Assembly: GCA_963662665.2 (NCBI GenBank)
Contig: CAXXJS010000061.1
Location: forward strand, 64,001-128,000
Direction of reading: 5' to 3'
DNA: 64,000 bases
Origin: Candidatus Latescibacterota bacterium
GTDB taxonomy: Bacteria; Latescibacterota; UBA2968; GCA-2709665
In this document: piece by piece, positions 15,001 to 21,000 of the stretch
How positions within the stretch are numbered: position 1 is the stretch's first letter
Layout of the letters: every line of letters begins with the position of its first letter
Made by a program: the position numbers

Positions 15001-18000
15001 CTCTGGGACCAGAGCTGGGGAAATATCGAGTTCAGCTTTGACGACCCCGACGGAAACAGTCTGTGTATTGCACAGGACAAGAACGGGTAGCATTCAGCCC
15101 GCGGAACCGGGCGCCGAGATTCCGACTTGCGAAATGACCAACGCATTCGGCGAGTACGAAATTCCGGCATTGACATTTTCGACCGACTGACCGAATGCTG
15201 AAATTCCACCTCAAGATTGCCTGGCGACATCTGAAAAGACACAAGGTGGTTTCAATCCTGAATATCTCAGGGATGGCCGTCGGTATCGCTGCTGTATTTC
15301 TGATCGCAATCTACGTGCAGAACGAACTCAGCTATGACCGTTTTCACAAGAATGCCGAACGGATATTTCGTCTGTCGGTACGCCAGAAATTCGACAACGG
15401 TGAACGCATCTGGCATCAGTCCGCATGGTTTATGGGTCCGCGCCTGTTGGAAGAATATCCCTATATCCTCTTGGCATTTTCCTCGTCGAAAGCGGTCCCG
15501 GCATATTGGCAAGAATCCATCCGGAACGCGTAGAAGACGCCGTCAGCTGGATTCGTCAGACGTGGTCCAGAGTTGCACCGCAGACGGCATTCTCATCAAA
15601 TAGCGGATTCCTGACCGATCGGTTTGAACGATTGAACGCAAAGGAACATGCTTTGTACAGGATTGTCGTCATCTGCGTCTGCATCACGCTGTTGTTGGCC
15701 GGAATGGGTCTGGCGGGATTCGTCAAGTCGACGGTTGAACGGGACACGAAGCATATTGGCGTTCGTCGAGTTCTCGGGGCGTCGGGATGGCGTATTGTGG
15801 CGATGTACGTGAGGAAGTTTATTTTTGTAGGACTCCTGGCCGGCGTCCTGGCGTGGCCTGTCGCGTATTTTTTTATGTCCCGGTGGCTGCAGGATTTCTC
15901 CTATAGGATTCAGATTAGTGCGGATGTGTTCGTTTATTCGACGTTGGTTACTTTATTGATAACAGCCTTGATTGTAGTGTGCCAATCCTACCAGGCTGCC
16001 GCGATGAGTCCTGTCAACGCTATTCGTGACGAGTAGTGTAGAAATCACATACGGTGAGCGCGACAGTCTCGTTATCGGCTGAATATCAATATCTTACGTG
16101 ACGGATAACCTTCCGGGAAAGCCGAAAACCGTCGCTGAAGCGAATTCCCCAAGTCAGGAAAAACGCCAATGTCATTCAGAATTGCGGACGATCAGGACGT
16201 CGATTATCGAGCGCTTGTCCGGGCGGCCTATGACCGCTGTGCGATGGAGTATGCACGGCGACGGCGCGCCACGGCCGGGCCGGAGCTCAACCTGATCACG
16301 GAGCGGCTGCCACCGGGTTCCAGTGTGCTTGACGTCGGCTGCGGCGCTGGCATTCCGGTCGCGCGCCACCTGGCAGAGACTTTTGACGTCACGGGAATCG
16401 ATATCTCTTCGAGCATGATTGCGCTGGCCACGAAAAACGTCCCTTCGGCCAGATTTGTCCACGCCGACGTTGTAGAGACCGAATTCCCCGAGGGTAGCTT
16501 CGATGCAATTGTCAGCTACTACTCTATCTTCCATATCCCCAGACTGGAGCATCGGGAACTACTTCGTCGATTCGCACGGTGGCTTCGGCCCGGTGGCCTC
16601 CTTCTGTTTACCGTTGCCAAAAAAGACGACGGACCTGGATATACCGAAGATGACTTCTTCGGCGAGACCATGTACTGGAGCAATTTCGGTCCCTCGACGT
16701 ACAGGAAGCTACTTGCTGACAGCGGGTTCAGGATCGAACAGGAAGGTATCGCAGGCGCCGGGTTTGCCAGCGTCGATGCGCTGGAAGAGGTTCACCCGTT
16801 ATTCTTCGCTGTCAGAAACGCGCGGGTGTAATTTACCTTGATTCGATTGTGCGCCGTGAAAAGGCGCGGAACTTCAGTGGGTGAGAGTCCCACCCGACAG
16901 ATGTTGCCACAGTCGGAAGCAATCGGAGCGGAGACGCAGGTAACGACATCTCCGAAGCCTCCGGTGTAGAGGGTCGCCAGGCGACCCGGCGAGTATGTGG
17001 GCTGAAACGTGAGTAAACGCTGCGCAGGCCTCGAAAAAGGTAATGCGGGAGCCGACCCGGCTTTTGGACGGGGAAGGCCGCCGTCGTTGGGGAAGCAGGC
17101 AACGAGCGCACCCAACGGTCCCGCCGGGGTAATGGCGGAGGCACGCATACAAGGAGTTCCGACGCAACACGGGAAGCCCCAGCGGTGGGGGTGACACCAA
17201 CCGGCAGCCCGCGAGGGCCAGGCCGGGCCGCATGGGGTGGCGGAGAGGCCCGTAGTACCTGAGAAGCCGGGTAATGCCGGTGGAGGAAAGGGGCCTTGGT
17301 TCAAGGGCAACGTCAAAGGAGCGAGAGCCGGGAGATTGGTATGAGCCTAAGACCTCCGGACAAGGTTCGGAAGCTGCGGATGACGTTGCATGCCAAAGCG
17401 AAGGAATCGCCCGATTACCGATTCTACGCGCTATATGACAAAGTGTATCGCGAGGACATCCTGAACTATGCTTACCGCTGCTGCAAGGCCAACGGCGGCG
17501 CGGCGGGCGTGGACGGGGAGACTTTCGAGGACATCGAGACATATGGACGAGACCGGTGGTTAGGCGAACTGTCGGAAGCCGTAAGAAGCAAATCGTATCG
17601 GACCTCTCCGATTCGTCGGGTATATATCCCGAAGCCGAACGGGAAGCAACGGCCGCTGGGTATCCCGACGATCAGGGACCGTGCGGTGCAAACGGCGGCG
17701 GTGCTGGTCCTGGAGCCGATCATTGAAGCGGACCTGCCAGCAGGGCAGTATGCGTACCGTCCGAAGCGGAGCGCGCACGACGCCGTCAAGGCGGTTCACA
17801 GTCTGGTGAACCGAGGCCACACACAGGTGATCGACGCCGACTTGAGCGGCTACTTCGACACGATCCCGCACGCCGAGTTGATGAAATCGGTGGCGCGCCG
17901 CATCTCGGACGGGCGGATACTGCGTCTGATCAAGATGTGGCTGACCGCGCCGGTGGAAGAAACCGACAAGCGGGGCCGGAAACGTCGGACGACGCCGAAC

Positions 18001-21000
18001 AAGGACCAGGGAAGAGGGGTGCCGCAAGGCGCGCCCATCTCCCCGTTGCTGGCGAACCTGTATATGCGTCGGTTCATCCTGGGCTGGCGACTTCTGGGAC
18101 ATCAGCAACGTCTGAAGGCTCATATTGTCAACTACGCTGACGATTTTGTGATCTGCTGTCGCGGGTCTGCAAAAGAAGCGATGCGCGTGATGCGATGCAT
18201 GATGAAAGCGCTCAAGTTGACGGTCAACGAGCAGAAGACGAGCGTATGCACGCTTCCGGAAGGACGATTTGACTTCCTGGGTTACACCATCGGACGCTGT
18301 TACTCGCCAAAGACGGGCAAGGCCTACATCGGCACGCGTCCGTCAAAGAAGGCGATCCGGCACATCTGCCGGGCCATCAGCGAGGCCACGGCGCGACGGT
18401 GGTTGCTGAAAGACCATCAAGAACGGATTGCCCACCTGAACCGAAAACTGGCAGGCTGGGGCAACTACTTCCGTCTTGGACCGGTCAGCAAAGCCTACCG
18501 GAGTGTGGACAGCCACACCCGGCAACGGCTCCGATGGTGGTTGTGCAACAAGCACCGGATACCGGGAAAGGGAACGTCACGGTTCCCTGACGAGGTCCTC
18601 TACGATACGTTGGGCCTGACCCGGCTGGAAGCGCAGACGCGCAACTTTCCGTGGGCGAACGCATGACGCCTTGTCCGAGAGCCGGATGCGGTAACTCCGC
18701 ACGTCCGGTTCGACGAGCGGGACGTGGAAACGGGGCACGGAGGGGCTATTGAGGCACCGCCAGACGAAAGGGGCGGAAACAGATAGGCCACTCCTAAACC
18801 ACCGCGCCACATCTCGACTCTACTTCTTCGGGGAAGTAAAACCGAATAAATGCAAGTAGATAACGGCGATTTAACTTCTGATTACCAGGATACACCAGGT
18901 CACCGGACGTGAACTGAAAGAATGTCCTTTTTTACGACCGTTTCACCCCGTTTCAGGGCTTTTCGTCTCGTTGCCGAGTTGCTGTTTTTTTCGAATTGGG
19001 GTTAAGACCTGTCCAACGCCTCTTTACTGACATCCTGTCCGGGGCGAGCGCACTTGAAAAGCAATACCTGAAGAGAGGTCCTGCCTGTGGATCTTGACCT
19101 GGATCGTCTGAAGGCGATATTGAATCAGGAACACTCCTACTACAGCTCAACGCCGGCGAAGTACCGCACTGATTCAGACATTGCGCCGCGGGCAAGTGAA
19201 ATAATCGTTTCGCAGTTTCGCCCGAAGATGAGAGTTCTGGATATTGGCTGCGGGAACGGCGGGACCCTTTTGCAGAATGCCAATCGCTTTGACGCGGCCC
19301 TGGGAGTAGACAACGACCCGAAACACTTCGAACTGGCTGAAGAAATCCGGATCGCCAGGGACGTGCAGAACGTGGAGTTCAGGCTTCTCGATTTCCTGGC
19401 CGAACGTAAGGCCCTGGAACCGGAGTCGTTCGACTTCGTCTATTCCGAACGTTCGTCGATCGGATATGACAGTTTCGGCGTCCAGGCTGCTCTCCGGGTC
19501 CTGAAGCCGGGCGGTCTCATCTTCTGTGAGTTGATCGGCGAGTTGCACCATCAGGAGGTGCGCGAAGTCTTCGGCGATCATCCGCGGTTATCCCAAACGA
19601 TCACCGTTCAGGACCAGATACGTGTTGCAATGGAAAGGAACGGCGTTGGGATTCGGTTTGCCGCCGACGTCGTTGAGAAACGGATCTATCCTGACGTGTA
19701 CGAATGGCTTCAGTTCCAATGTTCCATCTGGGCCTGGGGCGGAGGATCGCTTCCCCGGCATGATGACCCTCGCCTAAAGCTGTTCGCTAAACGCAACACG
19801 ACCTCGTCCGGTGAGATCGAGACAACACACCACGTCGCCTGGGTAGGGGCGTCAGGCTCCCCGAGAATCCGTATCCGGAACGCGCTCATTGAGGAGACCA
19901 TTTCATGGCGAAGTTCATAGGCATCAGCGAATGTGAATCTGCTTCGGGCGCGGCGGTTGTGATCGACGTAATGCGGGCATATACCGTTGCCGCGTGGGCG
20001 ATGCACATGGGCGCGTCGCGTATGATTCTGGTTGACGACCTTGAAGAAGCCCTGAAACTCAAGTCGCGGCTTCCTGGATCCCTGGCGTTGAAGGATGGTG
20101 CGCCGGCAGAGGGATTCGATCTGTATAATTCACCCGCGGACCTGTTGGACGCGGACATCCTTGGCAAGACCATCGTGCAGCGGACAACGGCCGGGACGAT
20201 TGGCGCGGTTGCCGTTCGCCATTGCAAACCACTGATCTGCACGGGATTCGTCTGCGCATCGGCTGTGGCCCGGAGAATACGCGATCTGGCGCCCGATGAA
20301 CTGACCTATGTGGTGACGGGCGAAGACGGAACGGCCGAGGAGGATCTCGCGTGCGCTGAATATATCGATGCGCTCGTTCGAGATCCCCTGGCTGATCCGG
20401 CCCCGTACATCCAGAGAGCTTCAGAGTCCAAAGCGGCGATCGATATCCTTCAGGCAGCGGCGGAGGGCTACCCGGGTATAAACCCACGAGACGTCGAAAT
20501 GTGCATGGATGTCAACCGTTTCAGCTTTACGCTTGAGGCTTCGATGGAAGGCGGACTTCTCGTCCTGGGGAAACATCAAGCATAGATTCTTTTATCCCAA
20601 TGACTTAGATCGCTTCTTATTGCAACCCATCACCTTTCCGCATGGTACGTGACGGGTGTGCGGACGGGCCGGCCCGGAGGTAATCCGCGCTGCAACGTCA
20701 CCCTGATCGTTTGAGAGAGAAACCCTGTGGACGCGTCGAAGATCACCTTTGTCAGCGATCGGGATGGGACCTTCGATCTCTTCGTAATGAACCCGGACGG
20801 GAGCAATCAGAAGAATATTACCCGTACCGCCTGGGAGGAGGATCATCCGCGATGGTCGCCCGATGGCAAATGTATCGCGTACTGCGACCGGCGCCATGGA
20901 AAAGGGGAGATCTACCTGATCGATGCAGATGGGAGCCGACCGAGACGACTGACCCGCAATTCGGCGCCGGATCTTCGTCCGCACTGGTCACCGGACGGGC

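Follow-up and report, generated by a model that had tools for sequence, protein, structure and literature searches.

In the passages of the reports cited here, RmInt2 of Sinorhizobium meliloti has the inverted repeats of ISRm17 as its homing target (PMC4615759, PMC5894124). RmInt1 has its natural homing site in the multi-copy ISRm2011-2, its ectopic sites share IBS sequences, and its insertion is proposed to block further spread of the element that hosts it (PMC5894124, PMC1802570). The TeI3/TeI4 family of Thermosynechococcus elongatus consists of ORF-carrying introns and more numerous ORF-less derivatives of one old deletion, and its lineages have diverged in EBS sequences and targets (Mohr et al. 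2010, PMC2882425). In Pseudomonas putida KT2440, a group II intron lies near REP elements, two of nine copies being associated (Tobes and Pareja 2006, PMC1525189). Our literature search on MITE, REP, IS, homing-site and EBS1 topics, with supplements outside its scope, found no group II intron homing into a MITE; the nearest report on a MITE and an intron, in its cited passages, concerns a group I intron (PMC4853749). In the locus described here, from an uncultured phylum, a MITE takes the place that an IS has for RmInt1 and RmInt2, which widens the intron-in-IS pattern.

The locus lies on contig CAXXJS010000061.1 (C61) of a Candidatus Latescibacterota bacterium (GCA_963662665.2; 66 contigs, rated 92% complete and 5.4% contaminated). 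The window, meaning the whole stretch of 64,000 nucleotides analysed, covers positions 64,001-128,000 of the forward strand, so that window position 1 is contig position 64,001. At window 16836-19001, a 191-bp MITE carries a group II intron of 1975 nt inserted directly behind its nt 13 (16849-18823; Table 1). The core claim of a first-pass annotation, an intron nested in a MITE with a landing site shared among copies, is confirmed by the sequence and by copy alignments. In sister genomes G003 and G005, the orthologous intergenic region is ~95 nt long and contains neither MITE nor intron; it is too diverged for nucleotide alignment and yields no base-level empty site.

Table 1 Features of the MITE-borne intron in the window.
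Feature	Position	Strand	Remarks
Left 4-bp MITE flank TTTA	16832..16835	+	One base different from right flank TTAA
MITE nt 1-13 CCTTGATTCGATT, intron 5′ exon	16836..16848	+	Candidate IBS2, nt 1-4 CCTT; IBS1, nt 7-13
Group II intron, 1975 nt, GTGCG...CTAC	16849..18823	+	One of three ORF-carrying copies
Domain 1 segment, RF02003 match	16875..17012	+	90.4 bits, gathering score 49
Candidate EBS2 loop AAAA[AGGT]AAT, intron nt 186-196	17034..17044	+	From alignment; unpaired in folds
EBS1, intron nt 214-220, TTTTGGA in the C61 copy	17062..17068	+	9-nt hairpin loop closed by CCCG/CGGG
Intron-encoded protein, 441 aa	17341..18666	+	RVT_1 aa 96-317 (YADD at 265), GIIM aa 340-407
Domains 5 and 6, RF00029 match	18677..18823	+	35.7 bits, gathering score 40
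Domain 5	~18679-18712	+	Part of the RF00029 match
MITE nt 14-191, 3′ exon	18824..19001	+	Terminates in right inverted repeat CGAATTGGGG
Right 4-bp MITE flank TTAA	19002..19005	+	

A blastn search of the genome recovers the intron copies at the places listed previously, namely three full, RT-carrying copies (C61, C24, and C16) and eight ORF-less copies (C40:257824, C50:56476, C28:65721, C11:63632, C37:6132, C8:68458, C10:234482, and C23:50868), together with a 78%-identical fragment on C5. All 11 copies have the ends GTGCG...CTAC, matching the 5′ GUGYG and 3′ AY rule. The ORF-less introns measure 756 nt instead of the ~775 bp first estimated. They differ pairwise at 0-2 positions (at least 99.7% identity); against the full copy, identity is 95-96% in the stretches nt 1-448 and 1825-1975.

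Full and ORF-less copies share the ribozyme. RF02003 (domain 1) scores 89.7-90.4 bits across the copies tested, against a gathering score of 49, and both Rfam matches of the C61 copy recur in the C24 and C16 copies and in an ORF-less copy, reproducing the annotated ~90 bits for RF02003 and sub-gathering 35.7 bits for RF00029. A large insertion in domain 6 keeps the latter under the gathering score of 40; the alignment of domain 5 to RF00029 has high posterior probability. The RT/maturase ORF is located in domain 4 and is intact in all three full copies, those of C61 and C16 differing at 14 positions, three of them amino-acid-changing. The protein matches the RVT_1 (E = 2.7e-36) and GIIM (E = 2.4e-13) profiles, no endonuclease domain was found in its 441 aa, and its best solved-structure match is the GsI-IIC RT (E = 1e-53).

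The MITE is short, non-coding, and multi-copy. A blastn search with its 178-nt right part gives 77 matches in the genome (76 hits had been counted before), 64 of them near full length. It occurs in 13 of 14 sister genomes within the genus, and a search of 26 genomes from other genera found it in none. The terminal inverted repeats are imperfect, as annotated: CCTTGATTCG and the reverse complement of CGAATTGGGG agree at 7/10 positions, and at 8/10 in copies with ...TTGAGG. The 4-bp flanks are identical in 40/64 copies and one base off in 16/64, whereas shuffling of flank pairs (2000 rounds) gives a mean of 14.8 and a maximum of 23 identical pairs, which upholds the proposed target duplications. 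The 40 identical pairs include CTAA (19) and TTAA (12), and the non-preferred ones are TTCA (three times), TCAA (twice), CCAA, CGAA, GTAA, and TAGA. As to the reported tendency to lie at stop codons, 19 of 55 unoccupied MITEs have an end at most 10 nt from the end of an ORF (ORFs of at least 120 aa). The terminator-like hairpins ascribed to the MITE are not found, since a terminator scan of 18824-19001 returns no terminator and the RNA fold is no better than that of shuffled sequences (z = +1.63).

Elements of the IS5 family encode a DDE_Tnp_1 transposase and produce a 4-bp duplication at YTAR-type targets, and an IS5-type origin of the MITE is offered as a suggestion. The genome contains two IS families of the DDE_Tnp_1 type; these show CTAN flanks, but their ends differ from the MITE ends. 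A 1.7-kb IS was rejected as the parent because the similarity of its ends to the MITE ends is not above that of shuffles. Within the source assembly, no MITE-type end pair 250-4000 bp apart flanks a transposase that could mark an autonomous partner.

In nine of the 11 intron copies, the insertion point lies between MITE nt 13 and 14; the fixed position annotated earlier is thus retained, at 13 and not ~15 nt inside. The C16 and C24 copies had both been regarded as off-pattern. The C16 intron is indeed outside any MITE, at an ectopic site that has GATTCGnAA/TTC (slash, insertion point) in common with the MITE target. The C24 intron, however, is also inside a MITE, in opposite orientation and after canonical nt 29, where that MITE copy repeats the 13-nt tip perfectly in inverted form. 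With C24 counted, ten of the 11 introns are MITE-borne.

Our analysis newly places EBS1 at intron nt 214-220 (7 nt), inside a 9-nt hairpin loop at nt 212-220. Across 45 distinct copies in nine sister genomes, EBS1 covaries with the final seven nucleotides of the 5′ exon. EBS1 and its own exon pair at 7/7 positions in 29 copies, 6/7 in seven, 5/7 in five, 4/7 in three, and 2/7 in one; own pairs thus reach at least 6/7 in 36/45 copies, compared with a mean of 3.3 of 7 for mismatched (trans) combinations. These copies carry 11 EBS1 types and therefore do not represent 45 independent events. The EBS1 of the ORF-less introns (TTGCGAA) and MITE nt 7-13 (TTCGCAA) are perfectly complementary, which fixes the insertion between nt 13 and 14; this EBS1 pairs with its own exon at 7/7 positions in six copies and 6/7 in two. 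EBS2 is usually located 5′ of EBS1. The candidate EBS2 loop differs among intron lineages at four central positions, with partial covariation, and its AAGG is able to pair with the MITE tip CCTT. A CAAGG at intron nt 302-306 was rejected as EBS2, being invariant across lineages with different targets and also 3′ of EBS1.

Whether relatives share the arrangement was a point for checking in the first-pass annotation. The same MITE family hosts the intron in sister genomes L122 and L090, as a decayed copy in the latter; in L122, the exon TTCGTCA and EBS1 TGACGAT pair at 6/7 positions. Elsewhere among the sister genomes, a full IS5-like IS is the host, and the intron interrupts it 13 nt in from its left end.

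Occupancy follows the target variant. ORF-less introns are found in 8/19 MITEs of matching variants (TTCGCAA, 6/16; TTCGCTA, 2/3) versus 0/44 others (Fisher p = 2e-5). Together with the EBS1 covariation, the exact complementarity, and the independence of the insertions described below, this supports the view that the MITE acts as the landing pad of the intron, as had been claimed. In ten unoccupied MITEs, the target shows no difference between positions -17 and +30, indicating that targeting is non-saturating or needs some further factor. A lagging-strand preference is described for related introns. Here, local GC skew, a weak proxy on contigs, reveals no replication-strand bias of occupied sites, being positive at 4/9 occupied and 4/11 matching empty sites.

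The near identity of the intron copies, and 4-bp flanks of occupied MITEs that resemble those of other copies, would also be expected if MITE and intron had spread together by transposition as one composite unit, the intron hitch-hiking with no targeting. However, pairwise identity among the bodies of the eight host MITEs is only 86.0-96.6% (mean 91.4%) and their introns are 0-2 of 756 nt apart, indicating that the introns entered already-diverged MITEs, independently. In addition, an occupied MITE often has an empty copy as its nearest relative: the C40 host is 100% identical to an unoccupied copy on C10, the C37 host 98.3% to one on C50, and the C23 host 98.3% to one on C53. Furthermore, an insert of 756-1975 nt so near the tip (13 nt) breaks up the inverted repeat, which would disable that transposon copy. 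We regard joint transposition as extremely improbable. Homologous recombination or gene conversion through MITE homology, which would spread the intron without reverse splicing, could draw on 178 nt of MITE sequence 3′ of the intron, but the shared sequence on the 5′ side amounts to 13 nt, and MITE markers from ~+25 nt onward differ among occupied copies, with no co-conversion seen. Conversion, which leaves the cross-lineage EBS1/exon covariation and the non-MITE C16 site unexplained, is in our judgement very improbable.

It is highly likely, in our view, that an endonuclease-less group II intron retrohomes into the left end of the 191-bp MITE by RNA base pairing, and that the ORF-less copies moved in trans. 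The intron RNA would recognise the MITE by pairing of EBS1 (nt 214-220) with MITE nt 7-13 and of the candidate EBS2 AAGG with the tip CCTT, and reverse splicing would then always occur between nt 13 and 14. Because the tip supplies the pairing, the landing point would be the same irrespective of the genomic DNA flanking the MITE. Introns of the endonuclease-less type use a replication-fork route, which this intron probably follows as well. The eight 756-nt copies are deletion derivatives in which the ribozyme domains and a remnant of the start-codon region are retained; the RT/maturase of the full copies most likely acts in trans to splice and mobilise them. Their own EBS1 seems adapted to MITEs of the TTCGCAA subfamily, suggesting a recent spread into that subfamily. 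Since the first 14 nt of the MITE contain the entire homing site, each transposition of the MITE would make a new safe, intergenic landing pad.

Judged by the described features of RmInt2 in the reports cited above, the present intron is similar in its endonuclease-less protein, its EBS/IBS recognition with a short EBS2/IBS2, and the residence of genomic copies in terminal inverted repeats of another transposable element, where all RmInt2 copies lie. It differs in that the host is a non-autonomous 191-bp MITE and not an IS (sister genomes do have the intron at an IS end), that only the left tip is used, in sense orientation, apart from one internal mimic, and that most copies are ORF-less. With RmInt1, it shares a homing site in a multi-copy transposable element and ectopic sites with common IBS sequences. 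Unlike here, the RmInt1 target is internal to an IS630-family IS and not at a MITE tip, and the cited passages describe no ORF-less expansion. RmInt1 and RmInt2 belong to class D, and the likeness is drawn on these features and not on phylogenetic class. As in TeI3/TeI4, full introns are outnumbered by ORF-less derivatives and lineages have their own EBS and targets; the TeI3/TeI4 targets are not described as a MITE in the part of the paper cited, whereas here one repeat family provides nearly all sites and EBS1 variants track its subfamilies. The P. putida KT2440 intron is likewise linked to a short intergenic repeat, with neither a fixed position nor pairing described in the cited portion of that report.

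Class C (IIC) introns insert after terminator hairpins or attC sites and have a short IBS1 and no EBS2. The GsI-IIC RT as best structure match, the endonuclease-less protein, and the intergenic insertions resemble this class, but the 7-nt IBS1, the candidate EBS2, the ribozyme part of ~650 nt, and the lack of a terminator-like hairpin upstream of the site do not. Class C membership is thus not supported by the targeting.

The three ORF-carrying copies depart from the pairing rule. Their EBS1 pairs with their own exon at 5/7 positions, with mismatches at -1 and -2, and at 7/7 positions with each other's exons, as if the loops had been swapped, and this mismatch pattern is absent from all relatives' copies examined. 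The chances are roughly even that the loops were mis-assigned during assembly or polishing of the three-copy repeat, and that C61 and C24 in fact carry AATCGAA and C16 carries TTTTGGA, all matching their own exons. The C61 and C16 copies are identical over nt 1-211 and 220-797, and therefore nothing else ties the loop to its flank; moreover, both loop variants occur in public runs containing the locus. Against mis-assignment, the assembly resolves within contigs both the 1.7-kb IS, present 15 times, and the eight identical introns of 756 nt, which suggests long reads, and these would seldom swap a patch of five differences. In contigs of four public runs, the 5′ junction is confirmed by pieces over 16654-16865 (two runs) and to 16878 (a third), but none extends to 17062, too short to link the junction with EBS1. 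Alternatively, although we consider this rather unlikely, the mismatch is real and the 9-nt loop has been exchanged among co-resident copies, whose backbones are identical apart from it, by recombination or RT template switching, which would give cassette-like retargeting along MITE and IS-end subfamilies across the genus.

The locus is a well-resolved natural case of nested genomic parasitism, one mobile element residing within another. The genus-wide series of 11 EBS1 types and their targets offers material on how introns shift specificity, and the 756-nt ORF-less ribozyme, 13-nt target, and separate 441-aa protein make up a compact natural two-part system. Our understanding of how group II introns work is unchanged by these data.

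A co-directional upstream ORF is present for 6/11 intron copies (5/10 of the MITE-borne ones), and the orientation relative to neighbouring genes is mixed. A plasmid protein search with the intron protein returns only generic 'ltrA' names, and the nearest relatives that carry a name are Candidatus Latescibacterota MAGs.

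The window, contig C61:64001–128000, carries a MITE that is interrupted by a group II intron, and the composite lies between two methyltransferase ORFs. For convenience, MITE positions are numbered from the left tip; nt 1–13 form the 5′ exon of the intron and nt 14–191 the 3′ exon. The flanking 4 bp of the window MITE are TTTA on the left and TTAA on the right. The best relative of solved structure for the intron protein is the GsI-IIC RT (E = 1e-53), and a domain search of the protein finds no endonuclease domain. Domains 5/6 score 35.7 bits against Rfam RF00029, below the threshold of 40, because domain 6 holds a long insertion. 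A weak TPP-riboswitch match within the intron is taken as chance.

Features of the window (plain coordinates are window positions)
Feature	Position	Description
Methyltransferase ORF, upstream	16169–16831	Stop codon 4 nt ahead of the MITE
Composite element	16836–19001	MITE split by intron; read from the window sequence
MITE left part	16836–16848	CCTTGATTCGATT; 191-bp MITE interrupted after base 13
Group II intron	16849–18823	1975 nt, GTGCG...CTAC; inserted in MITE
Intron domain 1	16875–17012	Rfam RF02003, 90.4 bits, strong match
TPP-riboswitch match	17223–17305	24.5 bits; gathering score 54.3
Intron ORF	17341–18666	441 aa; RVT_1 and GIIM maturase domain
MITE right part	18824–19001	Remainder of the 191-bp MITE
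Second methyltransferase ORF	start at 19087	Beyond the MITE/intron composite
Unoccupied MITE	26102–26290	Strand +; nt 7–13 TACATTA
IS, 1707 bp	27061–28767 (C61:91061–92767)	479-aa DDE_Tnp_1 transposase; 15 genome copies
Unoccupied MITE	48218–48403	Strand −; nt 7–13 TTCGTAA

Blastn searches of the genome (4.86 Mb, 66 contigs) return three full intron copies (contigs C61, C24, and C16) and eight ORF-less copies. Both counts agree with the first-pass annotation, and the length of the ORF-less copies, ~775 bp there, is 756 nt. The ORF-less introns differ from one another at 0–2 positions. They are 95–96% identical to the full copy across nt 1–448 and 1825–1975, and the surroundings of the former start codon are still recognizable as a remnant. 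The ORF-less backbone is common to several species, indicating that the ORF deletion is old and a single event. The protein ORF is intact, with YADD present, in all three full copies. The full introns of C61 and C24 are one nt apart and those of C61 and C16 19 nt apart; 14 of these 19 differences fall within the ORF, and just three of the 14 change an amino acid. Diverged pieces of related group II introns (71–78% identity) are located at C5:13735–13948 and C10:148815–148958.

The right part of the MITE (178 nt) has 77 matches in the genome, 64 of them near full length. The family is multi-copy as first described, with the earlier figures of ~200 bp and 76 matches corrected to 191 bp and 77. 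The 4-bp flanks of the 64 copies are identical in 40 cases, most commonly CTAA (19) and TTAA (12), and one base apart in 16, while 2000 shuffled pairings give on average 14.8 and at most 23 identical pairs, which bears out the proposed 4-bp target duplications. The reported proximity to stop codons applies to 19 of the 55 unoccupied MITEs, for which an ORF of 120 aa or more ends within 10 nt. The terminator-like hairpins ascribed to the MITE find no support in a terminator scan or in RNA folding. Of the 14 sister genomes in the genus, 13 contain the MITE family; a search of 26 genomes from other genera found no copy. No transposase partner element bearing the MITE ends is found in this assembly. 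Head-to-tail tandem MITEs, some truncated, occur at C24:7977–8270, C9:10045–10323, and C36:43147–43446.

Nine of the 11 introns, as first counted, share a fixed position in the MITE; the exact point, put at ~15 nt, is between nt 13 and 14, and the orientation is that of the MITE sense. The DNA upstream of the MITE is unrelated from one intron-bearing copy to the next. Of the two copies previously set aside as not fitting, C24 does belong to the MITE. When its intron is removed in silico, a 190-nt element flanked by TTAA on both sides is left, 165/192 identical to a canonical copy of the MITE. The intron is reversed relative to the MITE and inserted after canonical nt 29, a point at which this copy repeats the 13-nt tip in inverted orientation without a mismatch. 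Therefore, 10 of the 11 introns are MITE-borne. The C16 intron (L135, G000:C16:124000–126350) is at a non-MITE intergenic site, ~97 nt downstream of a tRNA-Sec gene (RF01852, 73.6 bits; ARAGORN anticodon TCA). This site has GATTCGnAA/TTC in common with the MITE target.

The intron family is found in 13 of 14 sister genomes, and the closest named relatives of its protein are from Candidatus Latescibacterota MAGs (86–90% aa). In a set of 40 sister-genome regions and eight loci of the closest protein relatives, intron nt 214–220 (context GACCCG-NN-(7 nt)-CGGGG) covary with the seven 5′-exon nt that directly precede the intron. Among the 45 distinct copies, which represent 11 EBS1 types and are therefore not independent events, pairing is 7/7 in 29, 6/7 in seven, 5/7 in five, 4/7 in three, and 2/7 in one. 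The control, EBS1 against the exons of copies with a different EBS1, averages 3.3/7. Both a 15-sequence consensus fold and a single-sequence fold place nt 214–220 in a 9-nt hairpin loop. These residues are EBS1. The ORF-less copies of this genome have TTGCGAA as EBS1, which is exactly complementary to MITE nt 7–13 (TTCGCAA). A second variable loop (AAAA-NNNN-AAT, intron nt 186–196), with partial covariation, is a candidate EBS2, and its AAGG is able to pair with the MITE tip CCTT. Therefore, the complete target, including the candidate EBS2 part, lies within MITE nt 1–14, which accounts for the fixed insertion position. EBS1 would pair with nt 7–13 and the candidate EBS2 with the tip, leading to insertion between nt 13 and 14.

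ORF-less introns occupy 6 of 16 MITEs with TTCGCAA at nt 7–13, 2 of 3 with TTCGCTA, and 0 of 44 with any other variant (Fisher p = 2e-5); ten empty MITEs have a target identical to that of occupied ones. Alternatively, MITE and intron could have spread as one composite by transposition, or the intron by gene conversion. The bodies of the MITEs that house the eight ORF-less introns share 86.0–96.6% identity (mean 91.4%), versus at least 99.7% for the introns, and for several occupied MITEs the nearest relative is an unoccupied copy, with identity up to 100%. This indicates that the introns entered already diverged MITEs. Both alternatives, transposition of the composite and gene conversion, are rejected. 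Variant-dependent occupancy, diverged host MITEs, and EBS1 complementarity thus support the proposal that the MITE is the homing site of the intron. Apart from small corrections, the original observation holds, and its interpretation is supported and supplied with a mechanism. In two sister genomes (G003 and G005), ~95 nt without MITE or intron separate the two methyltransferase genes at the orthologous locus. Two sister genomes have this intron in the same MITE family and at the same MITE position, one copy ORF-less (L122; 791 nt, exon TTCGTCA, EBS1 TGACGAT) and one decayed (L090). No strand bias of the intron sites is seen by local GC skew.

The EBS1 of the full copies appears crossed. C61 and C24 have EBS1 TTTTGGA and exon TTCGATT, and C16 has EBS1 AATCGAA and exon TTCGGAA; each matches its own exon at 5/7, positions −1 and −2 being mismatched, and the other's at 7/7. 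Five of the 19 C61–C16 differences are located in the 9-nt EBS1 loop, and the backbones are identical across nt 1–211 and 220–797. Either the loops were swapped between intron copies in vivo, or the loop was mis-threaded during assembly. The crossed pattern is absent from the relatives' intron copies. Public contigs support the flank/MITE/intron junction and contain the loop variants AATCGAA, TTGCGAA, and TTTCGAA side by side; they are too short to join loop to flank.

Intron homing into transposable elements is already established, as described for RmInt1 in ISRm2011-2 and for RmInt2, all copies of which lie within inverted repeats of ISRm17 (PMC5894124, PMC4615759). RmInt2 is the closest precedent of all. 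In T. elongatus, according to PMC2882425, ORF-less derivatives outnumber their ORF-carrying parents, as they do here, and EBS sequences have diverged. Other papers report a MITE carried by a group I intron (PMC4853749) and a P. putida intron with 2 of 9 copies near REPs (PMC1525189). Literature searches, supplements aside, returned no account of a group II intron that homes into a MITE.

Other lineages of the same intron have different EBS1 sequences and are sited in different repeats. In sister genomes, introns of the TGAATTT/TGAATTA lineage interrupt a full 1.7-kb IS 13 nt in from its left end (at locus L008, IS nt 16–1699 continue after the intron); in sister genome G001, the insertion is 13 nt inside a MITE-like end, TTAA-CCTGAATTATTCA. 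The host IS is related to the 1707-bp IS of the window, which has ends CCTGACCTATTCA.../...GAATTATTCAGA and 4-bp CTAN flanks. A second IS of 1641 bp with a DDE_Tnp_1 transposase, ends GGAGTCTGCGCCGCAGG, and CTAG flanks is present in nine copies (C4:29738–31378 and eight other places, one at the end of contig C40). An ORF-less intron in G006 (L089, contig C19; 756 nt, EBS1 TTTCGAA) is located after CCTCAATTCGAAA, a sequence similar to the right end of the MITE read in reverse, and has no MITE body around it. The CATGGAT lineage (L097–L108, L001–L004, L120, L121; full and ORF-less) occurs in three sister genomes, and 16 of its 19 copies follow the repeated motif ...ATCCTGTnnATCCTGTnnATCCATG/TAAGTT, which looks like another repeat family used as target. 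At L109 (G003:C52), a 720-nt ORF-less intron lies directly after the 3′ end of another intron copy, a tandem or nested arrangement.
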